Source: an uncultured virus (IMG/VR IMGVR_UViG_3300030685_000002) (lineage: Duplodnaviria; Heunggongvirae; Uroviricota; Caudoviricetes). From it: a stretch of DNA of 23,985 nt. This document shows, piece by piece, positions 1 through 19,152 of this stretch (positions within the stretch are counted from its first letter, which is position 1; every line of letters begins with the position of its first letter). The notes beneath the pieces were generated by a model. The model made no database searches. It was not told the origin of the DNA and was given only the letters and a program-made list of their open reading frames with translations. The stretch lies in IMG/VR virus record IMGVR_UViG_3300030685_000002; one strand, given 5' to 3'. The translations under genes were made by a program, and so were the position numbers.

Positions 1-2847
1 AAAAGTAATGTTCATGATACAGAAAAGTATTCATTAGAACTTGAAACAACTGATGTATTATTACAACAGTCTATTGATGATCTTCTAATGAAAGAACTTA
101 CTTCATATTATAAAAACAATAAAGAAGCATTCAAAAATAGTCCTTATGACTTTACTGGATCAGATAAAGAACAATTACTTCAACAATGGAAAAAAGATAA
201 TGGATTTGATGATGAAAACCTATTTACTTATAAGAACAATAAAATTGTTTTTGATAAAACTGATGTATCGAATTTTGATATTAAAGACTTGGATAGCATT
301 TCTACAGAAGTTGCTAATGAATTAAAACTAATGGTGCGTTCTCGTGCAAACATAAATATTGCCAGGACCGACATACAAGGTTTACGTTACATGAAAATGG
401 TTCCTAAGCTTAGTGTTACCGCAGATGCTTTGTATCGTCTTTCTACTATCATGGGAATGCGTAATGGTATTCCTTCATTGGATAAGGATTTCAGAACAAT
501 GATTAATACCGTACAACAAACTATTGGTATGTCATTGCAAGAATACAATTCTAATCCGGCAAGTGATATGAATGTTGCTAAACATATGGCTTACTATACC
601 ATAAACAATGATGCTTACAATAAAGAACAAGATGAAAAGAAAAAAGCTTTTATGTTCTCCCAAGAACAATTGGTAGCTAATGAAATTAATATGGGTAAAC
701 TTATCAAGAACTTACCTCAGATTGATTATATCTTGCAAGAACTGTATCGTCAAGAACTTATCACTAAACAGTCATTTATGGCCGATAATGAAGCTATTGA
801 AAAAGATGTTGTAAAATCATTCTTGAAATTACAGAATAGAACAACACTGAACTTCGGTGGTGAAGTCGCTGCAGTAAGTACCGCGATAAACGATATTATG
901 CTTGACAAGTACTATGCTACCATTGGAGAAAGTGCTATCATGAAAGGTCAGTATATCTATCAAGCTGTTGGTAATACTTATGAAAACCCATCACAGAACT
1001 TGGATTTATCAAGTCTTTTTGATAGACAATCATTTGTAAAGAACTTTCCTCAATTTATGATGGATATTGTTGAGCATTCTGATAATATTGATTATTTGAA
1101 TAAGACAGTACAAAGTGAGTTGCCGGCAGAAGAATGGATAAGATTTGCAGTTAATCCTCTTATCAAACTATTTACTATTGGTGGTAAGTTTGATGTGAAA
1201 TTATTACTTGATGTCAATACTAAAGAAATGACAGAACAGCGCGTTGCTCAGTTGAAAGACTACTTTAATTCTCTTCCAAAAGAATATAAAGAAATGCTTA
1301 TCAACTATGAGATTATTGCCAATAGAATGTCATATCGTCAAGGTGGTTTACTTCAAGTGATAGGTGTAGATTTCTACAAAGGACCAATAAGCAAAGTGTA
1401 TAACGATACATACGCCGAATTGCGCTCTTCTCTTGGTCTTGATAGTCTTGTACCAAATAAGTACAGAAAGTCCGTTACATTCAATTCAGACATTCGTGAG
1501 CGTATCTATGACTATCTTGGATTACAACCTGAGTTTGCACAATATCTAAGTCCAAAAGCAGTAGTAAATGAAAATAGTCCTAAGTATGCTTATCAGTTTG
1601 AGACAAAAACTATAGATGGTGAGAAAGTAAACACCGGACATAGAATAAATTTAAAACTGAATGATAACAATGCTTATGAAGTATTTGGAAACATTACTTC
1701 TTTAGGTATGTCTACTATGGCCGGAGAGAATATGACTTCTGAATTACGCTCATTTCAGACTACACCGGAAGAAGAATACAATCTTAGTCTTGCTAATCGG
1801 GATAATAATGATTTGATATTACATCAAGGTTCACGTGCATGGGTATCGGAAGGACAATTTCTATATACAAGAAGTGGAAAATTAATACGTGTTATTAAAG
1901 TAAAAGGAACTAATTTTGAATATCGTCTTGCTAACGATTCAGATATCACTTATCGTATGGAACAAAAGGAAATGGATACTCAGAAACGTAACAATAGGAT
2001 TCAACTTAAGGAGGGAACATTACAACATTCTATTTTTGATCCGAATGCTACTTCACTTACTGAGAATGAAGTTACAAAACCAATGGAATACAAAGTAAAA
2101 GGGAATATGTTCTTAAGTCAGTTGAACATAAATACTCTTACAAATGATGGTGTTGAAACTCGTATATCAATTTTTGACAATAAGAACAAATTCAATTCTA
2201 TCAATGAGGTTCTTGATGCTTACAAATACAAAGTATTAAGTACTATCGGAGAAAAGACAAAGAACTTTCCTTGGGACTTGAAGAACTATCAAAATGAAGA
2301 ACACAGAAGAAACAAAATCAATAAATATATTCGTAATTTAGTTGATGATGTTCAAGTTGTGGAAACTGAGAAGAATGCCAATGAGATTAAGCAAATAAAG
2401 ATTGCTATGGCACAACTCAATTTCAAACAATCATTGATAGTAAAAGCATTAGTACAAGCACGTGCATTGGCTTATATCAGTAGTCAAGGAAAGAACATGG
2501 TGGAACAACTTACTAGTAAGATTTCATCAACTGATTTCTTAGCTAATCAGAAAACTACTTTCAATAAAGAAGTTGAAGATATGTCAGTAGGGATTACTAC
2601 TTATGGAAAGGTTGCTCGTAGTGCTATTGTTGAAATGATTAATCCGGCAGTACGTGCTGAGATGAAAGCAACAGAAAGCAAACGTTCTGAAATGTTGAAT
2701 ACATTGGAAGGATCACTTGAACTATTCGATAGTGAGATAGCAAAGAAAGATAGCAAGAAAGAAGTTGCAGAAGGTGAACCCGCTATTGGTACTCCGGCAC
2801 AAGATAATGAGTCAGATAATAATGATGAAAAAAATAAATGTAAATAA
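1..2847 (+). CDS. C-terminal part of a giant phage protein, probably virion-packaged/co-injected (5' truncated by window)
   Basis: Frame 1 is open from base 1 (AAA AGT AAT GTT...) into the ORF called at 88, so the gene begins upstream. No catalytic motif recognised. Acidic tail ends ...KNKCK. Size, composition and tandem position with another giant gene resemble crAss-like ejected-protein loci. Confidence 0.6.
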   Translation, partial: KSNVHDTEKYSLELETTDVLLQQSIDDLLMKELTSYYKNNKEAFKNSPYDFTGSDKEQLLQQWKKDNGFDDENLFTYKNNKIVFDKTDVSNFDIKDLDSISTEVANELKLMVRSRANINIARTDIQGLRYMKMVPKLSVTADALYRLSTIMGMRNGIPSLDKDFRTMINTVQQTIGMSLQEYNSNPASDMNVAKHMAYYTINNDAYNKEQDEKKKAFMFSQEQLVANEINMGKLIKNLPQIDYILQELYRQELITKQSFMADNEAIEKDVVKSFLKLQNRTTLNFGGEVAAVSTAINDIMLDKYYATIGESAIMKGQYIYQAVGNTYENPSQNLDLSSLFDRQSFVKNFPQFMMDIVEHSDNIDYLNKTVQSELPAEEWIRFAVNPLIKLFTIGGKFDVKLLLDVNTKEMTEQRVAQLKDYFNSLPKEYKEMLINYEIIANRMSYRQGGLLQVIGVDFYKGPISKVYNDTYAELRSSLGLDSLVPNKYRKSVTFNSDIRERIYDYLGLQPEFAQYLSPKAVVNENSPKYAYQFETKTIDGEKVNTGHRINLKLNDNNAYEVFGNITSLGMSTMAGENMTSELRSFQTTPEEEYNLSLANRDNNDLILHQGSRAWVSEGQFLYTRSGKLIRVIKVKGTNFEYRLANDSDITYRMEQKEMDTQKRNNRIQLKEGTLQHSIFDPNATSLTENEVTKPMEYKVKGNMFLSQLNINTLTNDGVETRISIFDNKNKFNSINEVLDAYKYKVLSTIGEKTKNFPWDLKNYQNEEHRRNKINKYIRNLVDDVQVVETEKNANEIKQIKIAMAQLNFKQSLIVKALVQARALAYISSQGKNMVEQLTSKISSTDFLANQKTTFNKEVEDMSVGITTYGKVARSAIVEMINPAVRAEMKATESKRSEMLNTLEGSLELFDSEIAKKDSKKEVAEGEPAIGTPAQDNESDNNDEKNKCK

Positions 2848-2855
2848 TCAATTCT

Positions 2856-5800
2856 ATGAGTAAATGTCCTAACAAAAATGATAAGGAATACAAAGCCTTA
2901 TCAGCAATCGTCGGAGATGGTAAAGCACATACTATCTATGCAAAGAACAATGGTAATCCTGTCAGCTTAACGGCTGATGGGAATCCATCTTTAATATACC
3001 AGCAGTTAGTGGAACGCTATGGTGTAGATAAAGCAGTGAAGTATCGCGCGAATATGTTTACTGAAAAGTTTTCTGTTCTCAGTGGTCAAGATACAACTAA
3101 GATTAAAAATGGAGTTGATCAATTATTTAATGATAATGATAAACTTAGTACTATTGGAACTAAGCAACAATATTCAAAATATATTGAAAGTATATTCCCT
3201 GATAGCAAAAACAAAGAAATATTATTTAGAGGTGAAAACGAAAATAATAAAAATGGGAAATACTTTACACCGGATGAAAATTATGCTAAAGTATTTGGTA
3301 AAAATGTAAAACCATTTATCATAAATTCAAACAATGTACTTGATTTAAGGAAATACAATATTGAATTAGATGCTGAACTTATAGATAAAAGCGGAAGAGA
3401 AACTGAAAGAGAAAATTTATGGGTAAATAAAAATATAGATATTGATAAATTAATTGATAATAGTGATACTGTTGTTGGATTAGATGCGGGTAATCAAGTT
3501 TTATCTATATATACTAAGAATGATGTATATCAATTAGGTTCTGAATTAGATATTACTGGATTCAAAAAATTTGTTGCTAAGAATACTATATCAGAAAATG
3601 ATTACATACTTGACGAAAATGACAACATTATCACTAAGTCGGGTAAATCTATTCAGATAGGGGAGAAAGTGGCAGAAACGGAAGGTATTAAAGACTACAA
3701 GCTACGTAAAGAGTTTATTGCAACAGCAGAAAAGACTAATTCGTTTATTCATTCATTGGAGAAAGCGGTACCGGGATTTAAAATACAAGTTGAAAGTTTT
3801 GAGACAACACGTAATACCGAACATGCTACTGATCGCGCGTGGGTAGATGCTACCGGAATACACTTGAATACTCAATCAATGAATGTTGATACTCCTATTC
3901 ATGAGCTTACACACGTATGGATTCACGTTCTTGAAATGACTGATGGATATAAGTACAATCAGTTTATGAGTAAAGTACGTGATTCAATTGCAGACAATAA
4001 AGAAATCATGGACTCGATACGCAAAAAGTATTGGCAGCTTGACGAGGTTCATCAACTCTATGAATATGCTGCTGCAGTAAGTGGTATGACTTCACAGAAA
4101 GAAGTAAACAAGTTTCTTGCTCGTAACAATCGCTATGTATCTTCTATTCGATCAAAAGATATATTCAGAAAAGTATATGATATTGTCAGTAGCTTATTCT
4201 CTTCAATAGGTAATCTAGTATCTGGTAAAATAACTGCTAACTCAGCACTTGATAATGTAAACTTTGAGAAAGGTACATTGAATGACATTTTCAATGCATT
4301 GACAGAAGATATTCTTAATGGTAGAAAGATTATTGATTTTGGGCCGGTAGAGGTAGAACAGTTATTGAAGAACTATTATAGTGATGGTTTCTATGAAGCT
4401 GATATAGGATTTAAGCCTATTGAGAATGTCGCTGAGGTAGTTCCATTCCTTATCAACAATGAAGAGTACGGACAACTTAACTTTGAAAATCCGGAAGCAA
4501 AAGAAAAGATGGTTGAAAACATATTTGCGAACCTTTGGCAAAGAGATAAGGATCGTATCTATGTTGACTATGGTAAGATGTATAGTTATCCTAATAGTAT
4601 GCCGGACAATGAAGTTATGGCCAGTATAAAGAATGAAATGCTAGTACGTCGTCAGCAGATGATGAACTCATTCAACAACAATATTGTCGAAATACTTAAT
4701 AAGCATATCTCAGATACTTCTGTTCCACTTGAAACACTTATTCAAGATACTTTCTCTGAATATGGTTTCTCTGATACAGTAGTTGAGAACATTGTTCGTT
4801 CTATTAAATTGCTTGGTATAAACGAACCTATGACTACTGTTATGAACTATCGGGATATGACAAACGTACAAGCGCTGGCACCATTATACAATGATGCTAT
4901 TGTTGGTTTTAATCCTATTGTGATAGTACATACTATGTCTGACAGCAAAGTTGATGTATCACTTATTGACTTAACCGGTTCCGTTCTTGGGTTTCAAGAT
5001 AACCTTATGGATTCACATAAGAAATCACTTGCTTCAAACTTAGGTAATGACAAATCAGAAAAAGGTCGTAAGTTTAATATGAGCAATAGTCAGGGAGATA
5101 TACGACAAGTATTACTCGGAGTGACTATTGCCGGCATGAATAAACTTGCTCAAGAGAATAATAAGAAACTTACCTTACGTCGCTATGGTGTTATTGGTTT
5201 TAATGGTACTTCTATTCAACCACGTATGCTTTCTACTCTTCATCAAGCAATGGCCAATGGTAGAGATTTATTTACTCTTCCATCAGTACAAGCTGTCATG
5301 GATGAAAAATCATTATCGTATAAATGGTTTCAAGAGCTTTTAAGCGATGATAAAGCATGGAATGAGGATAGTATATACCAGAGTTGGAGAGATAAGCTAG
5401 AAACGTATTATGCTGCTTACTATCAATCATTGAATATGGATGAAGTACAGAAAAATGCTATGACTGATAACTTCAACAGTTATGAACATTTCAAACTACT
5501 TAGCGATCGTGCCCGGGCAATAGAGATAAAAGACAAGAATTGGATAAACAATCCGGAACACAAATTGATTACTCAGTATCTTGTATGGTTCAAACAAGGT
5601 GTAGGTATCAATAACGGACAAGTAAAAGATATCAATAAGACTTGGTTGAAGTTTACTAATATCCACAATATTAAATCTGATATCCTTCAATACTATTCTG
5701 TAGAAGCCGAAGCAACAAAATCTATTATTGTCAATCAATTGAATGACTATAAAGCAAAGTTTAATGATGCACTGACAAAATCACTTGAATCGCGTGGTAT

Positions 5801-8033
5801 GTCATTAAACATCCTCGGTAATCAACCCGAGAAAGTATTTGGTCACTTATTCAAGAAAGGAGAGTTATTGCTTACTGAGGATAGTGATAAGAATAAGAAA
5901 GGTGATATTGTTCCTATCATTCTCAATAATCAATTGTATGGATCTTACAATGTCGAAGAAGCTAAGAAAGCCGGACTTACTACAGAAGATATTGCTCTGG
6001 CCGACCTTATTCTTGAAACAGTAAAAGAACGTTACCTTGCCAATGCAATGCATGATAACTCGCGCCGGTCAACGCCAAAGAAAGAAGAAGAGTTGCGTAA
6101 TGAGTTATTGAGTAAAATGGTTCCAGGGCATATTCCTGTTTTGGAAAAGACTAAACAAGAGTTATTCCGCGACAAGAAATACAAAGAGATGGTTCGTAAA
6201 GGGTGGGATCAAATAGCTATTTCTGAGTTTATGTCCGGAATAGAAGATGTGACTATTGATAATGATTTGATTTCAGATAATTATCAACATATGAACTCAC
6301 GGTTTCGATCTCAGCAGTCTATACAGCAACAGATGATACGTATGGGACTTATGCCAACAGACAGTACTACACCTAATAGATACAAAGGTGATTTGAAATT
6401 CTATGGTAAAAAGACTATGAACTTAGAATATGTATTTAGCATGTTTGTAGATGATAGCATTCGTACTATTGAGATTGAGAATAGAATGATCCCTGCCATG
6501 AATAAAGCTATTCAATGGAATCAGATATTAAAAGAAGAGTATAACATTCAAACGAAATATACTAATGAATTTTTGAAAGAATATTCTGACAGAATTATCA
6601 AAGGAAAGTCACAAGATGATCCTACTGATAAGACTGCAGCTATTGTAAAGAATATCACTAATGCTTATTCTTTCATGGCTCTTGGTTATCGTCCACTTGT
6701 ATGGGTACGTTCAGCTTATTTCAATACTCAGTCACAAATCATAGAAGCATTGTCTACTAAGGCTGCTAATATGTTTACTGATGAAAATAAACGATTGAAC
6801 TTTCCTACTCCAGAAGATATGACTAAAGCAAATCTTGAACTTGCTATGAACCATAAAAAAGTTATGGCGCTAGGTAAGAAGTTTGGTTTAGTAAATGGTA
6901 GTGAGATGGAAGCTATTGAGTCATTTTTTACAACAAATATTGATAAGAACGTTTTCCAATCACAACTGGCACATATTGGTAATTACTATTCTGATATCGC
7001 GGCCAGACTAACTACCATGGTCGGATTTATGATACATGATGGTTCTTATGAAGCTCATACCTATGATAAGACAACTGATACATTGAAATATGATAAGTTG
7101 AAAGATACTCGTTACTTTGATAAAGAGGGTAAAATGATCAGTGGTAAAGAACAAGCTATCTGGGATAGAAAGACAAAACAGATGATTGACCAAGGTATCA
7201 TAAAAGATACTGAAAATATGGAAGTGGGTTATGATTTTGAAGAAGTAAACACTCGTTTCAAATGGTATGCTGACAAGTATATTATTGGTGCTATGGATGA
7301 ATATCAAAAGATGCTTTTAGGGAATACATTCTCGGGTCGTATCTTTACTCAGTTCCGTACTTTCTTGCCAGGGAAGATATTCAATTTAGTTGGTAGTAGA
7401 AGAATGACATCTTATGGTGCCGACGTTACTGCAGAACTGAATGAAAATAATGAATGGGAAACTATCAAGAAACAAATTATGATAGAGGGAACACTTGCTT
7501 CTATGTGGAACTATCTTTCTGATGTAGTAAAAGTTGTTCGTACTAAGGATATGAAGTTTTCTGATTTGGAAGAGATGGACCCAATGACAAAATACAATCT
7601 TGCCCGGTCAATGATTAGTGCTACTTTCTTTACTTCTATTTTAGTAGGTATAAACATGCTTGCAGCAAATGGAATGAGTGACAGAGATAAGGACAAACTT
7701 TCATGGCTTTATAGCGAACTTCTTTCTTATTCGAACTATGACTCCATAAAGAGTAATATTGTTCCAATGTCAGGCCTTATAGACAACATCATGGGGCTTA
7801 TGACAGGACAAAAGAAGTGGACGCGTTTATTTGCTTATACTGGACCAGTATATGATGCTATATGGTTTATGGAGTTATTAGGAGATAATGACAACATGCT
7901 TCAAGACTGGACAGCACGTAAGAAAATAAATGATATGAATGCTCAGGAACTGAAAGAACACTATCAAGAAGTTGCTGATAAACGAGCTAAGCGATTACAA
8001 AAAGAAGTTGACGATCTTGAAAAATTGAATTAA
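2856..8033 (+). CDS. Large polyvalent virion/ejection protein (1725 aa): ART-like domain, HExxH metallopeptidase domain, C-terminal hydrophobic region
   Basis: N-terminus MSKCPNKNDKEYKAL; IFPDSK..ILFRG..YFT..YA..G module (aa ~83-240); DTPIHELTHVW zincin motif (HELTH at nt 3900-3914) with downstream YEYAA; GRIFTQFRTFLP and hydrophobic SMISATFFTSILVGINMLAA (nt 7608-7667) near the C-terminus. Confidence 0.7.
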   Translation: MSKCPNKNDKEYKALSAIVGDGKAHTIYAKNNGNPVSLTADGNPSLIYQQLVERYGVDKAVKYRANMFTEKFSVLSGQDTTKIKNGVDQLFNDNDKLSTIGTKQQYSKYIESIFPDSKNKEILFRGENENNKNGKYFTPDENYAKVFGKNVKPFIINSNNVLDLRKYNIELDAELIDKSGRETERENLWVNKNIDIDKLIDNSDTVVGLDAGNQVLSIYTKNDVYQLGSELDITGFKKFVAKNTISENDYILDENDNIITKSGKSIQIGEKVAETEGIKDYKLRKEFIATAEKTNSFIHSLEKAVPGFKIQVESFETTRNTEHATDRAWVDATGIHLNTQSMNVDTPIHELTHVWIHVLEMTDGYKYNQFMSKVRDSIADNKEIMDSIRKKYWQLDEVHQLYEYAAAVSGMTSQKEVNKFLARNNRYVSSIRSKDIFRKVYDIVSSLFSSIGNLVSGKITANSALDNVNFEKGTLNDIFNALTEDILNGRKIIDFGPVEVEQLLKNYYSDGFYEADIGFKPIENVAEVVPFLINNEEYGQLNFENPEAKEKMVENIFANLWQRDKDRIYVDYGKMYSYPNSMPDNEVMASIKNEMLVRRQQMMNSFNNNIVEILNKHISDTSVPLETLIQDTFSEYGFSDTVVENIVRSIKLLGINEPMTTVMNYRDMTNVQALAPLYNDAIVGFNPIVIVHTMSDSKVDVSLIDLTGSVLGFQDNLMDSHKKSLASNLGNDKSEKGRKFNMSNSQGDIRQVLLGVTIAGMNKLAQENNKKLTLRRYGVIGFNGTSIQPRMLSTLHQAMANGRDLFTLPSVQAVMDEKSLSYKWFQELLSDDKAWNEDSIYQSWRDKLETYYAAYYQSLNMDEVQKNAMTDNFNSYEHFKLLSDRARAIEIKDKNWINNPEHKLITQYLVWFKQGVGINNGQVKDINKTWLKFTNIHNIKSDILQYYSVEAEATKSIIVNQLNDYKAKFNDALTKSLESRGMSLNILGNQPEKVFGHLFKKGELLLTEDSDKNKKGDIVPIILNNQLYGSYNVEEAKKAGLTTEDIALADLILETVKERYLANAMHDNSRRSTPKKEEELRNELLSKMVPGHIPVLEKTKQELFRDKKYKEMVRKGWDQIAISEFMSGIEDVTIDNDLISDNYQHMNSRFRSQQSIQQQMIRMGLMPTDSTTPNRYKGDLKFYGKKTMNLEYVFSMFVDDSIRTIEIENRMIPAMNKAIQWNQILKEEYNIQTKYTNEFLKEYSDRIIKGKSQDDPTDKTAAIVKNITNAYSFMALGYRPLVWVRSAYFNTQSQIIEALSTKAANMFTDENKRLNFPTPEDMTKANLELAMNHKKVMALGKKFGLVNGSEMEAIESFFTTNIDKNVFQSQLAHIGNYYSDIAARLTTMVGFMIHDGSYEAHTYDKTTDTLKYDKLKDTRYFDKEGKMISGKEQAIWDRKTKQMIDQGIIKDTENMEVGYDFEEVNTRFKWYADKYIIGAMDEYQKMLLGNTFSGRIFTQFRTFLPGKIFNLVGSRRMTSYGADVTAELNENNEWETIKKQIMIEGTLASMWNYLSDVVKVVRTKDMKFSDLEEMDPMTKYNLARSMISATFFTSILVGINMLAANGMSDRDKDKLSWLYSELLSYSNYDSIKSNIVPMSGLIDNIMGLMTGQKKWTRLFAYTGPVYDAIWFMELLGDNDNMLQDWTARKKINDMNAQELKEHYQEVADKRAKRLQKEVDDLEKLN

Positions 8034-13832: not shown

Positions 13833-13873
13833 AATTATTGATTGGCTTACCTATACCGCACTAGGTTTTAGTT
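13833..13873 (-). promoter_or_regulatory. Conserved leader element, copy A (upstream of tad2-like gene)
   Basis: AACUAAAACCUAGUGC-GGUAUAGGUAA-GCCAAUCAAUAAUU-AUG; core at 13857-13847, 14 nt from AUG. Confidence 0.65.
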
Positions 13874-14242
13874 TTATTTCAAAGAATCTACAATAGCACA
13901 GAATAATGCATCCTTCTTTTGTTGGAAAATAGGTAATTGTTCGAAAGAAACAATACATGAATGAGTTTTTGCTTCTGCATTTTTACTTTCTCCATATACC
14001 CATCCATCAGCAACTTTTTCAGCCATCCATGAATTATGCTGTGCATCATGTCCAGCATCCGGATTTTCAATACGAAATTGTACACCTTTAATAGCACTTT
14101 GTTTTTGCCAATCATCGGCTTGATACCAATCTTTTTGAGAATAATCACCATAACTTTCGCAAAATGCTTTATTTGCTTGATAGCAAATAGGAGCAATAAC
14201 TTCTGCAATACTTGCAGGTCTTGAACCAGTATTTTCACTCAT
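13874..14242 (-). CDS. Stand-alone phage RyR-domain protein
   Basis: HNSWMAEKVADGWVYG...KTHSCIVSFEQLP..QQKKD matches the RyR repeat motif (H..W...K...GW.YG...K.HP.LVP...L...K..D). Confidence 0.85.
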   Translation of the reverse strand: MSENTGSRPASIAEVIAPICYQANKAFCESYGDYSQKDWYQADDWQKQSAIKGVQFRIENPDAGHDAQHNSWMAEKVADGWVYGESKNAEAKTHSCIVSFEQLPIFQQKKDALFCAIVDSLK

Positions 14243-14286
14243 AATAGAATATCACTTTACCTATACCAGTGAGAAGGTTCTAGTTA
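14243..14286 (-). promoter_or_regulatory. Conserved leader element, copy B (upstream of RyR-domain gene)
   Basis: AACUAGAACCUUCUCACU-GGUAUAGGUAA-AGUGAUAUUCUAUU-AUG; core at 14267-14257, 14 nt from AUG. Confidence 0.65.
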
Positions 14287-15762
14287 TTAAAATAATTCTT
14301 TATCTTCTTTCTTTACTTCATGGTCGATTTGATCATAACCAACCAACTGCATTTCATCAGCAGAACGAACATGTTCAGCGAATAGCATTACCTTACCAAG
14401 ACTCTTAGCTGTTTCCTCAAGCTTATTGAGTACTTCATATCCCAAGGCCTCAGCATCGCCCATAAGCATCAATGGAGCCTTATTTACGCGCATCATCAAT
14501 TGAGCAATAGCAGCAGTCGCTTCCGACTTACAAATATCAGTTTCCAGAAAAGGAATATTATCGATAGTAACATAATCATCATCAATCGACCAACCAACCG
14601 GCATGTTCTGACTGTTTTTGATGATTTCCTTTTTCTTGGTGCGGAGAGTCGTAATCTTCTCGTCCAACTCACTAACTTCACTTTCCTTCTTTTTATGATC
14701 TTCTTCATTCTTTGCTTTTTGTTTTACTAATACATCCAATTGATTATACTGATTGATTTTTGTCTGGCCAATCTCTAATCGTTTGGCAAGACCAATATTC
14801 TTTTCAGTACCATCACCATCTAATTCTAATTTTGCAGCTTCAAGTACTTTCACATCGAACTTAGTATTCAATTCAGTGATTGCTGCAGTGATTGCTTTTT
14901 CAGAAGTTTCGTACTCAGCATTCTCAGTTTCCAGTTTCTTTTCATCGGCTGCCAATTCTTTGGTAAGACGGTCAATTTCTTCTTTGGCAAAACGAATGGA
15001 GTTAGTAAGACTTTCCACTTGCTTATTATGTGATTTTTTTAGTGGATCCAGTTTTTCATTTTCTGCATCCAACTTCACTTGATAAGTATCGAATCCTTTA
15101 ATTGTTTCATCAATCTCTTCTTTACGAGCAGTAAGTTCAGTAAACAACTTTTGAATAGCCGGAGCATCAGTAATAAGTTTTTGTTGTTCCGGATTGAATA
15201 CGATATTGTCAATACTCTTTTTCAAGAAGTCAACTGACTTATTCAATTCTTTACGCGAATCGATCATTGTTCCTTTTGTAGGATGAATCTCAGCATCTAT
15301 TTTCATTATCTCTTCACGTTCTTTTTCTGAAAGTAAGTTCATGAAGATAGCACGTTGTTTAGCACGGCCCGGTTCTGTTTTACTCCATTCAAAGAACTCT
15401 TCCAATGTAAAATGAGTATAATTGAAGATAGCGCGCATTTCAGTAATTCCTTTGACAACTTTATTGTCTGGAGCAATGAACTGAAATTTGTTCTTACCAT
15501 CAATATTAAAGTCGTAACGAAATTGGTATTGTAAACCATCAGCGCCAGGTATTGTACCGGTAGCAAATCCTTCTTTCTCACCAAAAGTTACTGGATTGAC
15601 AGTAGTATCTTTTACTTCCATGAGTGCTTGGATAAGATTCAAGAAAGAAGTCTTACCTTTTTTGTTTCCGCCTTGTGCGAAGAAGATAGTACCATTTGAT
15701 AAATCCCATTCTCCTTCTTTGAGAAGTTTGTAATTCTTGATATGAATTTTAATTTCTGACAT
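14287..15762 (-). CDS. Rad50/SMC-like coiled-coil ATPase
   Basis: IHIKNYK start, Walker A GGNKKGKTS, long coiled-coil middle, degenerate C-terminal ABC motifs (ICKSE, LMLMGDAE). Confidence 0.75.
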   Translation of the reverse strand: MSEIKIHIKNYKLLKEGEWDLSNGTIFFAQGGNKKGKTSFLNLIQALMEVKDTTVNPVTFGEKEGFATGTIPGADGLQYQFRYDFNIDGKNKFQFIAPDNKVVKGITEMRAIFNYTHFTLEEFFEWSKTEPGRAKQRAIFMNLLSEKEREEIMKIDAEIHPTKGTMIDSRKELNKSVDFLKKSIDNIVFNPEQQKLITDAPAIQKLFTELTARKEEIDETIKGFDTYQVKLDAENEKLDPLKKSHNKQVESLTNSIRFAKEEIDRLTKELAADEKKLETENAEYETSEKAITAAITELNTKFDVKVLEAAKLELDGDGTEKNIGLAKRLEIGQTKINQYNQLDVLVKQKAKNEEDHKKKESEVSELDEKITTLRTKKKEIIKNSQNMPVGWSIDDDYVTIDNIPFLETDICKSEATAAIAQLMMRVNKAPLMLMGDAEALGYEVLNKLEETAKSLGKVMLFAEHVRSADEMQLVGYDQIDHEVKKEDKELF

Positions 15763-16326: not shown

Positions 16327-16536
16327 TTAAAATGAGTTTAATGTTAGACAATTTGTACATTCTGCTTTATACATACTTACTACTTCTAATTTGTTTTTGT
16401 TGCATGACTTACATAGCTTCGTTTTAAGCGTACTTACATGCTTCTCTACCGAATTGACCCATCTACTAAATTCAAGGGCTTCTTGCTCTTGATACATAGC
16501 AAATAGGTCATTATTCAAGGTACTATCGTTTGTCAT
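16327..16536 (-). CDS. Small zinc-ribbon protein
   Basis: CKSC...CTNC; start reassigned to MTNDSTL, an ATGA overlap with the MTase stop. Confidence 0.6.
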   Translation of the reverse strand: MTNDSTLNNDLFAMYQEQEALEFSRWVNSVEKHVSTLKTKLCKSCNKNKLEVVSMYKAECTNCLTLNSF

Positions 16537-17516
16537 ACATGAATGATTACAATACAAGCTGCAATCATAGTTCCACTTTCTTTAAAGGTACCGGCTGGTA
16601 TTTCTTCGATAACAGCACCCATACCATCAAGAAAAGCTCTGAACTCAGTTTCTTTCTTGTTCTTTGATTCTCTCCAATGATTAGAAGCACATGATACCAC
16701 TATTCCCCCGGGTTTACAGACTTCTACCATTTTATAGATATGATCAATATCCTGATTCTTTGTGAATGGTGGATTAGCGATAACCTTATCAAATGGCTTA
16801 CTACATTCTGAAGTAAGAAAGTCTTGAAAGAAATGGGTAATCTGTTTCTTTGTAAGAACAATAGAATTGAGTCCCATATTCTCAACACATGTAGGCACGA
16901 TATTATGCCATTTGCGTTGCATTGCTTCAACGATAGCACCTTGTCCGGCACTAGGCTCTAGAACACGATCAAAGTTGTTTAATTGAGCAAGTTCTATAAG
17001 TCTGTCAGCAAGTTCTGGCGGAGTACCAAAGAATTGATGTTCTTTCTTTAGATTACGTTTTTCACCACTAGCTATCTCGGCTAATAAATCTGTTGGGTCC
17101 TCAGCAAACACAAAGGCCTTTATTTTACCACCAGTCCATTTACCACCGATAAGTTCTAACGCTTTTGCAACTTCCATATAAAGCTTACGGTCGATTTGTT
17201 CGTCCGGTAGATATACGCGATTTTGTACTACTGTACATTGTAATAATATGTTTTTTGCATTCATAGAAATTTCACTTATTTGTTTTTTTACTTGTTCTTT
17301 TTTGTTTGAACTTTCTTTAATTGGATTATAATCAAGGTCTAAATAAATTAATCCGGTTTCATCATCCCATGTACATTTATATTTTTTAAAAATGGCCATT
17401 CGAATTTCATATATCCTAGGAGATTTGCTTTTTGATTTGATTAATTCATTGTGTTCTTTTATTAAATCCTTATCTAATTGATTATTCTCCAATGTTACCA
17501 AATTTGACATATTCAT
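16533..17516 (-). CDS. Amino (N6A/N4C) DNA methyltransferase, gamma-type motif order
   Basis: FFGTP, VLEPSAGQG (SAM-binding), IANPPF (catalytic), GTFKESGT. Start uncertain (17516, 17510 or 17264). Confidence 0.85.
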   Translation of the reverse strand: MNMSNLVTLENNQLDKDLIKEHNELIKSKSKSPRIYEIRMAIFKKYKCTWDDETGLIYLDLDYNPIKESSNKKEQVKKQISEISMNAKNILLQCTVVQNRVYLPDEQIDRKLYMEVAKALELIGGKWTGGKIKAFVFAEDPTDLLAEIASGEKRNLKKEHQFFGTPPELADRLIELAQLNNFDRVLEPSAGQGAIVEAMQRKWHNIVPTCVENMGLNSIVLTKKQITHFFQDFLTSECSKPFDKVIANPPFTKNQDIDHIYKMVEVCKPGGIVVSCASNHWRESKNKKETEFRAFLDGMGAVIEEIPAGTFKESGTMIAACIVIIHV

Positions 17517-19152
17517 TTTCTTCTTTTTGCTTAGGGATATAAGGTACCTGTGCATCAGCATCAGCTAATGATACTGTTTTCTTTTCAACAAGTTCTTTCT
17601 TTACTGGATTCAATTCATCAAGAATGACTTGTTTACGAATAGCAATACGATCCTTACGTTTGTTACATGTAGCCGTATGTTCTTCGACAATCTCCCCAAA
17701 CTTATCTGAGTAAAAGACATTAGAAATGTTTGAAAGGATATTCTGTACATCTGCATCATGAGTTACTTCTGTTCCAACAATACATTGTTTGATAAAGCAG
17801 CGTTTCAATGTAATAATATCCTCGGGTAACATGTTTTGTATGTTTTCCATGTAAGACAAATCTTTCTTGAATTTTGTTCTTATCTCTTTTAATTTACTGT
17901 TAGAAGCCATATAGAATATGACAGCCATAAAAGCAGTTTCTTCAATAGGAAGTAGTGGTGTACTTATCTCACGATAGTTACTACCGGAAATAAGACTTCT
18001 AAGATCAGCATTAATCTTTTCCTCTTTGATTTCCTCTTTACGAACAAGGTCTTTGTCAAGCTTTATAAGTTCCGGATGAACTGTTCCTGCAGCAGCAATA
18101 TCTTTTTTGGTAATCTTTGCTTTTATATAAAACATCTTATCACCACCAGACCATGTATCAAGCCCGTAAACAGCTTCAAATCCTTTCTTGACCATTTTAT
18201 CATGAAAGGATAGATCATCGCTCTTATCATGCTCAAAATCGTATTCTTCGGTACTAAACACTACAACTGGTATATGCAATTCTTTCAGCTTATCAAGAAC
18301 CCGATTACTTGTACCTAATGAACGAATCATAATAGTAGTATCTTCTTCATGTGCAAGAATAATATTGTTCATACGATGTTCAAAGATTTTATCATCATAA
18401 CAGAAGCTATTAGTACAAGAATTGATTTTGTAGTCCGGGAATAAAGAACCATGGATAGAAGTACAAAACTGACAAGTAATACACTCAGCCAAGCTAAAAG
18501 AAGCATTGTCTAAGTTCTTTGCAAGATTTTGTATTTTCGATTTTAAATCTTTTAGATTAAGATCATTCCACCGATAGTAATCACTGGCTTCTTCGCTATA
18601 ACGAGTTTTGTAAATATCTAACTGAATATCTTTGTCAAGCTTACATAATTCATAAGCATGAGAAATGGATAATTCATTTTCATCAAACATTTTTACAAAC
18701 TCAGCAATAAGCTCAAGCAAGCGTATTCTATGCATTACAAATAGAACCGGCTTACCAACCTTTACAGCAATATCTTCACCAGTCCAACCTTTGTTATTGA
18801 GGTTAGCAAATGCCCGCGCTTCATCCATAGGTTCGATATCCTGGCGTTGTAAGTTCTCAATGATCATTGCATCCAGTACTTCTTCATCATCCATTTCTAC
18901 AATGATACATGGCATTGTTGTCATTCCAAGATGACTACATGCACAATAACGACGATAACCCATGATTACTTCATAAACATCATTTGTTGGATAATCATCT
19001 TCTTCAATTTTACGTACAGTAATAGGCTGCAACAACCCTACTGATTTAATACTTTGTGATAACTCAATTATAGAGTCTTGGTTTATTGTTTTCCGAGGGT
19101 TTAACTTGGACGCAACAATATACACTAATGGAATTTGAACAATTTCATTCAT
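17482..19152 (-). CDS. parB: Long ParB/RepB/Spo0J-family protein
   Basis: NPRK, ELSQSIKSVGLLQPITVR, GYRRY (GxxRxxA), IENLQRQD, HTH region, then a CxxC..C...C cluster and extended C-terminus. Confidence 0.85.
   Translation of the reverse strand: MNEIVQIPLVYIVASKLNPRKTINQDSIIELSQSIKSVGLLQPITVRKIEEDDYPTNDVYEVIMGYRRYCACSHLGMTTMPCIIVEMDDEEVLDAMIIENLQRQDIEPMDEARAFANLNNKGWTGEDIAVKVGKPVLFVMHRIRLLELIAEFVKMFDENELSISHAYELCKLDKDIQLDIYKTRYSEEASDYYRWNDLNLKDLKSKIQNLAKNLDNASFSLAECITCQFCTSIHGSLFPDYKINSCTNSFCYDDKIFEHRMNNIILAHEEDTTIMIRSLGTSNRVLDKLKELHIPVVVFSTEEYDFEHDKSDDLSFHDKMVKKGFEAVYGLDTWSGGDKMFYIKAKITKKDIAAAGTVHPELIKLDKDLVRKEEIKEEKINADLRSLISGSNYREISTPLLPIEETAFMAVIFYMASNSKLKEIRTKFKKDLSYMENIQNMLPEDIITLKRCFIKQCIVGTEVTHDADVQNILSNISNVFYSDKFGEIVEEHTATCNKRKDRIAIRKQVILDELNPVKKELVEKKTVSLADADAQVPYIPKQKEENEYVKFGNIGE

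Follow-up and report, generated by a model that had tools for sequence, protein, structure and literature searches.

A small hairpin leader adjoins the start codons of exchangeable accessory genes, including putative anti-defense genes, in a putative crAss-like phage and in unrelated phages

Two leaders with a common core at a putative anti-defense locus

We analyzed a 23,985-nucleotide (nt) stretch of DNA, here called the window, from an uncultured virus of the Caudoviricetes (IMG/VR record IMGVR_UViG_3300030685_000002), in which two short intergenic leaders with the same core stand directly in front of two adjacent, putative anti-defense genes. The window is the reverse strand of positions 6,112-30,096 in the 68,576-nt virus record, which has 32% G+C. 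The large terminase of the record is 22-29% identical to Crassvirales terminases, and an open reading frame (ORF) of 5,836 amino acids (aa) is also present; we take the source virus to be a distant crAss-like phage. Genes in the window lack Shine-Dalgarno (SD) sequences and have A-rich leaders, like those of Bacteroidota. Read along the minus strand, a 491-aa gene comes first, then spacer B, an RyR-domain gene, spacer A, a Tad2-like gene and a Cys-rich gene, with the following features:

14287-15762, minus strand: conserved 491-aa gene (phrog_1499), left border of a variable spot; its stop codon is 1 nt before leader B
14243-14286, minus strand: leader B, preceding the RyR-domain gene (covariance-model match of 21.7 bits, E 0.0087)
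14285-14275, minus strand: box of leader B, AACTAGAACCT
14272-14268, minus strand: 5' stem strand of leader B, TCACT
14267-14257, minus strand: loop of leader B, GGTATAGGTAA
14256-14252, minus strand: 3' stem strand of leader B, AGTGA
14251-14243, minus strand: spacer between the stem of leader B and the start codon
13874-14242, minus strand: RyR-domain gene, 122 aa, of the RyDEP / RyR-Tad anti-Thoeris family, an inserted cassette
13833-13873, minus strand: leader A, preceding the Tad2-like gene (covariance-model match of 29.1 bits, E 1.5e-4)
13873-13863, minus strand: box of leader A, AACTAAAACCT
13859-13858 with 13846-13845, minus strand: weak stem of leader A, GC with GC
13857-13847, minus strand: loop of leader A, GGTATAGGTAA
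13844-13833, minus strand: spacer between the stem of leader A and the start codon
13506-13832, minus strand: Tad2-like (DUF2829) gene, 108 aa, PF11195
13139-13504, minus strand: conserved Cys-rich gene (its product starts MGKVSTIDT...), right border of the variable spot

Written out in the direction of the genes, copy B (14285 to 14240) is AACTAGAACCT TC TCACT GGTATAGGTAA AGTGA TATTCTATT ATG and copy A (13873 to 13830) is AACTAAAACCT AGT GC GGTATAGGTAA GC CAATCAATAATT ATG. The pattern AACTARAACCT, 5-7 nt, GGTATAGGTAA, 14 nt, ATG matches twice in the window, at these two minus-strand places, and never in 100 shuffles. This bears out the original prediction, made from the letters of the window alone, that twin spacers share a core and an equal distance to the ATG; the complementary core flanks (TCACT/AGTGA in copy B, GC/GC in copy A) are also as it described them. 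Its remark that these are the only two long spacers is true between 8,217 and 19,152, where no other gap exceeds 10 nt, but further on the same strand there are gaps of 30, 44, 155 and 73 nt. Likewise, the absence of a third copy holds for this genome, where the 11-mer core GGTATAGGTAA occurs twice in the window and at the same two places in the whole 68,576-nt record, but many copies exist in other phages. A complete 85.7-kb relative also contains two copies of the 11-mer.

The RyR-domain protein matches PF02026 with 36.4 bits (E 6.1e-9; Pfam cut-off 27.4) and phrog_5154 at 4.8e-42, and it also matches RyR-domain chains in the PDB; its phage family is large and conserved, with 561 proteins at E ≤ 1e-10. 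The Tad2-like protein matches PF11195 with 40.7 bits (E 3.6e-10; Pfam cut-off 25). Solved SptTad2, Tad2, ModTad2 and AcrIIA7 chains match it with E-values of 1e-8 to 1e-5, including PDB chains 8wjd, 8v3e, 9eib, 8kbi and 9kzr at 1e-8 to 1e-7. Both genes thus belong to anti-Thoeris families, and the earlier view that they are an adjacent pair of putative anti-defense genes is well founded by family membership. As described in the accessible parts of two reports, the RyR-domain phage proteins called RyDEP cleave or sequester 2'/3'cADPR Thoeris signals (10.64898/2026.05.28.727677), and an RyR-related Thoeris inhibitor acts as a sponge for NAD-derived signals (10.64898/2026.06.04.730250). RyR domains also occur in natural fusions; of the two proteins P0098 and P0069, one is joined to a Tad2-like domain (205 aa) and one to an Acb2/Tad1 hairpin domain (204 aa), which suggests that these sponge families work together.

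The leaders belong to a family found in unrelated phages

A first scan for AACCT-N5-7-GGTATAGGTAA returned 111 loci, close to our rough estimate of the chance level, and only the window's relatives and two further loci (L084 and L042) stood out. Even so, 3 of its 67 unique matches had stems of 5 bp or more on either side of the core, compared to 0.24 expected. Scanning IMG/VR for AACT-N2-3-AACCT-N6-8-GTATAGGTA yielded 64 loci with 41 unique sequences; in 36 of the 41, as judged by reading them, a hairpin encloses the core and a start codon follows closely. In metagenome contigs, the same pattern was found at no fewer than 117 loci, with at least 90 unique sequences. Among the metagenome matches listed, 62 unique sequences form stems of 4 bp or more, which come in 31 distinct versions, and an ATG lies 6-13 nt past the stem (mode 8) in 56 of these 62, compared to 5 of 28 stemless matches. 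A covariance model built from 10 seed sequences found 82 matches in the collected loci, 40 of them distinct, and the first ATG is 3-8 nt past the end of the model in 33 of 41 distinct downstream genes. Where we call members genuine, the count rests on the presence of both stem and start codon.

The family can be summarized as a box AACTnnAACCT, a variable stem of 4-6 bp, a GTATAGGTA loop and an ATG 7-12 nt on. As RNA, the leader is about 34-36 nt long: a single-stranded box AACUnnAACCU is followed by a short hairpin with a freely varying stem and the loop (G)GUAUAGGUA(A), then by 7-12 A/U-rich nt and the AUG.

The original prediction did not recognize the element as a named riboswitch, and the comparison with Rfam 15 agrees: there is no relevant match at E-values up to 10 in the window region or up to 5 on five motif loci, and neither a set of 20 loci nor the window in full gives a match at the gathering score. 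Searching the literature for the core 9-mer in either orientation gave only primer-type matches, and searches by topic turned up no account of the motif. The searchable supplements of PMC8040213 contain no copy, although two of its files were not covered, so that an earlier bulk-prediction listing is possible; a 2026 preprint on noncoding-RNA mapping contains nothing on phages. The motif is apparently a widespread small RNA hairpin that has not been catalogued.

The carriers are phages of Bacteroidota, Crassvirales among them; they are unrelated and range from 46 to 362 kb. Copies may be clustered, with six in 3 kb at one end of one genome (G009) and three each in three others (G010, G013 and G014). 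Among named Crassvirales, the uncultured cr50_1 (E 7e-4) and the cultured Kolpuevirus 'frurule' of Bacteroides cellulosilyticus (E 5e-6; OQ198718.1 92,832-92,868, minus strand) have one copy each; crAss001, phi14:2, DAC15, Fpv3, BS-TP4 and BS-TP2 have no convincing copy (best E 0.1-1). In the species-representative genomes of GTDB, 5 of 36 pattern matches are genuine, two of them labelled Bacteroidales, and all five are on contigs of 4.8-41.6 kb in metagenome-assembled genomes. The motif is rare in host genomes and is not a host element.

This distribution bears on the possibility that the leader is the operator of a trans-acting translational repressor, which would bind loop and box and shut off accessory genes later in infection. 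An invariant loop and box around a free stem are typical of protein-bound hairpins, the motif adjoins the start codon, and four of the downstream genes encode members of immune-signal sponge families (RyR twice, Tad2-like and Acb2/Tad1-like). There is also a precedent: in the accessible parts of the source, the RNA motifs bound by Aca1 and Aca2 are covarying hairpins found in the 5' untranslated region and between adjacent genes of anti-defense operons, where they act on translation (PMC13551039). The leader resembles these motifs as a covarying hairpin adjoining the start codon. In contrast to what is described there, where a helix-turn-helix (HTH) regulator is co-encoded and a DNA operator lies in the promoter, we found no such regulator, and most of the genes behind the leader are not recognizable as anti-defense genes.

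We found no protein common to the 6 carrier genomes, and tblastn of 141 ORFs from G013 against the five other carriers found no protein common to more than two. Among 99 ORFs around the motif clusters in 6 phages, Pfam searches (of limited sensitivity) found no HTH or ribbon-helix-helix regulator domain save a ParB. Given these results in carriers that differ so widely in size and are unrelated, we consider a dedicated repressor improbable.

The hairpin evolves as a sense-strand RNA

In the 40 distinct sequences, 91.5% of the stem cells are paired, compared to 26-49% when the partner strand is slid by 1-3 columns. There are compensatory changes at 5 of 5 stem pairs. Changes on both sides of a pair account for 55 cells, compared to 15.1 in shuffles, and 0 of 500 shuffles reached 55. 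RNAalifold recovers the same helix. Covariation across the family therefore supports the hairpin that the original prediction had drawn from two copies.

The imperfect stems reveal which strand folds. At least 4 of the 5 pairs are Watson-Crick in 56 distinct stems; here, G-U is the odd pair in 15, A-C in 1 and some other combination in 17. It is the sense-strand RNA that folds, because neither a feature of the DNA duplex nor a fold of the antisense strand would produce the 15:1 asymmetry between G-U and A-C. These results show that the hairpin is under selection as sense-strand RNA.

The asymmetry also matters for the idea that the motif is a phage promoter at the DNA level, or a promoter-plus-hairpin cassette, in which box and loop are recognized and transcription starts at or after the loop. 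Several features would fit: the loop, with TATA directly before GG, resembles a T7-type promoter start; the motif lies between genes, has the same orientation as the gene behind it and forms clusters ahead of runs of small genes, as in G009; one copy stands before a tRNA array (L126); and a short fixed leader would also account for the constant distance to the ATG. In the accessible parts of the literature, moreover, the early promoters of the crAss-like virion RNA polymerase are not known. Against a promoter, the 15:1 ratio indicates that both arms of the stem are selected as sense RNA, the carriers share no polymerase or sigma factor, and -35/-10 elements would need more room than the 6-8 nt between box and loop. 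PF00940 (T7-type polymerase) was not found in 5 carrier genomes, a weak result, as there was no positive control and the control genomes gave no match either. On the gene strand, neither spacer in the window contains a sigma-70-type promoter or a U-tract intrinsic terminator, and the Bacteroidota -7 box TAnnTTTG is absent from both as read by eye. In cr50_1, the motif forms the final 45 nt of a 208-nt divergent gap, and a host-type, TAnnTTTG-like box is visible by eye about 110 nt upstream of it. Taken together, we regard a promoter as unlikely.

The original prediction went beyond the hairpin to a pseudoknot, in which ACCU of the box pairs with AGGU of the loop. Of these two helices, only the hairpin (5 bp) is supported by compensatory change. 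Box AACCU and loop AGG are invariant in 40 of 40 distinct copies, leaving no variation to covary in the ACCU:AGGU arm, and where the loop does vary to AGGC (2 copies) or AGGG (1 copy), the box is unchanged. In most members a single A joins AGGU to the 3' stem strand, and, by the usual geometry of pseudoknots, a linker of one nucleotide looks too short to cross a 4-bp helix.

Leaders lie at the junctions of exchanged cassettes

The 491-aa gene on the left of the variable spot is 97-100% identical in 10 IMG/VR relatives, and among close relatives we observed three allelic states to its right: RyR gene, leader and Tad2-like gene, as in the window; the Tad2-like gene alone behind one leader; and a 72-aa ORFan behind leader B. 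In the second state (L120-L124, about 89% identical), the 491-aa gene is followed by one A-type leader and the Tad2-like gene, with no RyR gene. A 411-nt unit, made up of the rest of leader B, the RyR gene and the start of leader A, is absent from these loci, and the single leader of the L121-type relatives aligns with both window copies over 31 nt. In the third state (L524), the same end of the 491-aa gene is followed by a leader B that is identical up to the ATG and then by the ORFan, which has no Pfam or PHROG match; the Cys-rich gene of the right border comes directly after it.

The left-hand (5') junctions of both the insertion and the replacement fall in or at the leader, and the twin leaders therefore reflect cassette exchange. 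Comparison of the alleles shows that the twin arose when an RyR cassette with its own leader came to lie before the Tad2-like gene's leader. The original prediction had listed recombination for gene-cassette exchange as an alternative, and the three allelic states bear it out. Similar traces are present elsewhere. In G014, two copies are identical including the first bases of the gene, and the second lacks a full ORF, a duplication scar; in related Bacteroides prophage-like contigs, one 31-nt version of the leader stands before three different genes.

The closest parallel in behavior is found in T4-type phages, where, according to the accessible parts of the source, the PeSLs (promoter-early stem-loops) are short regulatory cassettes that recur in hyperplastic regions, where small non-essential genes lie on either side of them (PMC2839356). 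They bound insertions, deletions and replacements between close relatives and mediate modular shuffling (PMC2839356, Arbiol et al. 2010). The leader shares this property: a repeated intergenic motif bounds indels and replacements between close relatives. As described there, however, PeSLs consist of a strong sigma-70-like promoter and a terminator stem-loop, neither of which we found at the spacers, whereas the leader has a conserved loop, a stem that evolves as an RNA helix and a fixed distance to the AUG. Short homology between leaders may let co-infecting phages swap cassettes.

The leader precedes many kinds of accessory gene

The original prediction proposed a switch special to anti-defense genes. 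We scanned 74 of 80 Tad2-like loci returned (6 duplicates of the window's own lineage were left out) and 65 of 68 RyR loci with the covariance model. The motif is present at 0 of the 71 Tad2-like loci outside the window lineage, and it stands directly before the RyR gene at 1 of the 64 RyR loci outside it (L195). Most of the 24 downstream proteins scanned belong to no family; a DUF932 protein, a BspA-type LRR protein, a holin and some small membrane proteins are among the rest. In one case, L126, a tRNA array lies downstream. The motif is thus not specific to anti-defense genes and precedes dozens of unrelated small accessory genes, an outcome that the original prediction had itself named as speaking against its proposal.

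These counts weigh on the proposal that the leader is a ligand-sensing mini-riboswitch, in which a pseudoknot between box and loop binds an immune nucleotide, NAD+ or ADP-ribose (ADPR), or another signal. Riboswitches of the preQ1-I type are about 34 nt long, have a hairpin loop able to pair with a flanking strand and adjoin the translation start. The size of the leader and its hairpin-plus-pseudoknot layout are within the range of these smallest riboswitches, ACCU and AGG never vary, and some of the cargo consists of anti-signaling sponges. Unlike preQ1-I, the leader has functionally incoherent cargo, a second helix that shows no covariation and tolerates the AGGC and AGGG variants, and no counterpart in Rfam; in most members, if the usual geometry applies, the one-nucleotide linker would also be too short. 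With the motif at so few other sponge loci and no common function downstream, a ligand-sensing switch seems to us extremely improbable. We give hardly more credit to the wider version, a self-contained mini-riboswitch in which contact between box and loop would capture a nucleotide that reflects the state of infection (an immune signal, NAD+/ADPR or the like) and time the translation of any accessory or anti-defense cassette behind it across unrelated Bacteroidota phages.

The one RyR locus outside the window's lineage that has the motif, L195, is in a 129-kb phage (G010) with three copies: one precedes a long RyR protein, another a membrane protein and the third an Acb2/Tad1-hairpin protein. 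Its RyR gene (L195 1018-1521, plus strand) has an in-frame TAG at a conserved position and would encode 167 aa if TAG is read as Q. G010 appears to recode TAG, because several neighboring ORFs also need TAG read-through. Two genes after the RyR gene, with a GroES-like (Cpn10) gene between, is a gene whose 90-aa product has an Acb2/Tad1 hairpin domain (PF24729, 36 bits; L346 4027-4296, minus strand, G010:10026-10295), and the stretch from one to the other looks like a small anti-signaling island.

Elsewhere, the L042 copy (G002), whose host uses SD sequences, stands ahead of a holin-endolysin pair, and about 700 nt from it, by motif reading, is a reverse transcriptase of the diversity-generating-retroelement type (L127 3753-4823, minus strand). 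With the protein downstream of the motif at L337 as query, tblastn returned only mycobacteriophages.

A proposed role in the expression of exchanged genes

We think it rather likely that the element is a portable, cis-acting mRNA leader that works near translation initiation or mRNA processing through host machinery. It marks sites where cassettes are swapped, and at the RNA level it would supply every cassette with an expression signal of its own. We expect host machinery, and not a phage protein, to read the leader, because the carriers share no detectable protein. As to the step involved, we tentatively favor translation initiation because of the fixed spacing to the AUG, though with less than even confidence. 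A role in mRNA processing and stability, as a 5'-stabilizing module, would fit the hammerhead ribozyme that adjoins one copy (see below), but seems a minor possibility.

Bacteroidota and their phages initiate translation without SD pairing. In a bold reading, the hairpin would stand in for the SD duplex on Bacteroidota ribosomes and make foreign cassettes translatable on arrival.

Several observations weigh against a translational leader read by the host. Neither loop nor box has a complement of at least 6 nt in two Bacteroidota 16S genes, which leaves ribosome recruitment through base pairing without support. The hairpin has little stability: its alifold folding term is -3.15 kcal/mol, the stem of copy A has only 2 pairs (GC/GC), and both spacers in the window fold no better than shuffles (z = 0.24 and -0.53). 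The covariance-model alignment leans toward the structure of the model, although script counts on the raw flanks, which are independent of it, agree. Two members do not fit a role in translation: the copy in L126 lies about 70 nt before its tRNA array with no ATG nearby, and the ATG in L042 is 24 nt off, after an SD-like AAGGAG. With a threshold of 1e-3, tblastn could miss a trans factor that is small and evolves fast. Finally, the 24 records found to contain the window DNA are all peat-metagenome DNA contigs, with no RNA run among them.

The layout of the leader also recalls the nut sites of lambda-type phages (boxA and boxB), where a conserved linear box comes first and then a hairpin whose stem covaries and whose loop is conserved. 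A genome has one or two nut sites, placed after early promoters, and their effect is on transcription elongation; unlike them, the leader stands 7-12 nt before many single start codons, up to six in 3 kb.

To our knowledge, little is known about the expression of individual genes in crAss-like and other gut phages. A covarying RNA element 7-12 nt before the AUG of dozens of genes offers a testable handle on it, and the cultured carrier Kolpuevirus 'frurule' makes bench tests possible. The leader also marks variable spots that swap anti-defense genes (RyR, Tad2-like and Acb2/Tad1-like), and scans for it could help to find new accessory and counter-defense genes.

Other features of the window and of motif-carrying genomes

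Outside the variable spot, the window contains two further regions of note:

1-8033, plus strand: the window begins within the 5,836-aa ORF, which is followed by a 1,725-aa ORF; neither has a Pfam or PHROG match
16533-19152, minus strand: a gene for a ParB-N/HTH protein (556 aa) overlapping a DNA methyltransferase-like gene (342 aa)

The two long ORFs may encode giant virion proteins of the kind typical of crAss-like phages. The unrelated phage G014 has a similar ParB-like gene (L345 95-1810) upstream of its motif cluster.

In one lineage only (G009 and G011), a motif copy is paired with a ribozyme:

L275 285-358, plus strand (G009:285-358): RAGATH-1 hammerhead
L288 1206-1279, minus strand (in G011): RAGATH-1 hammerhead

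The hammerhead (82.6 bits, E 1.5e-13) is flanked by two small genes and stops 3 nt upstream of a motif copy on the same strand.

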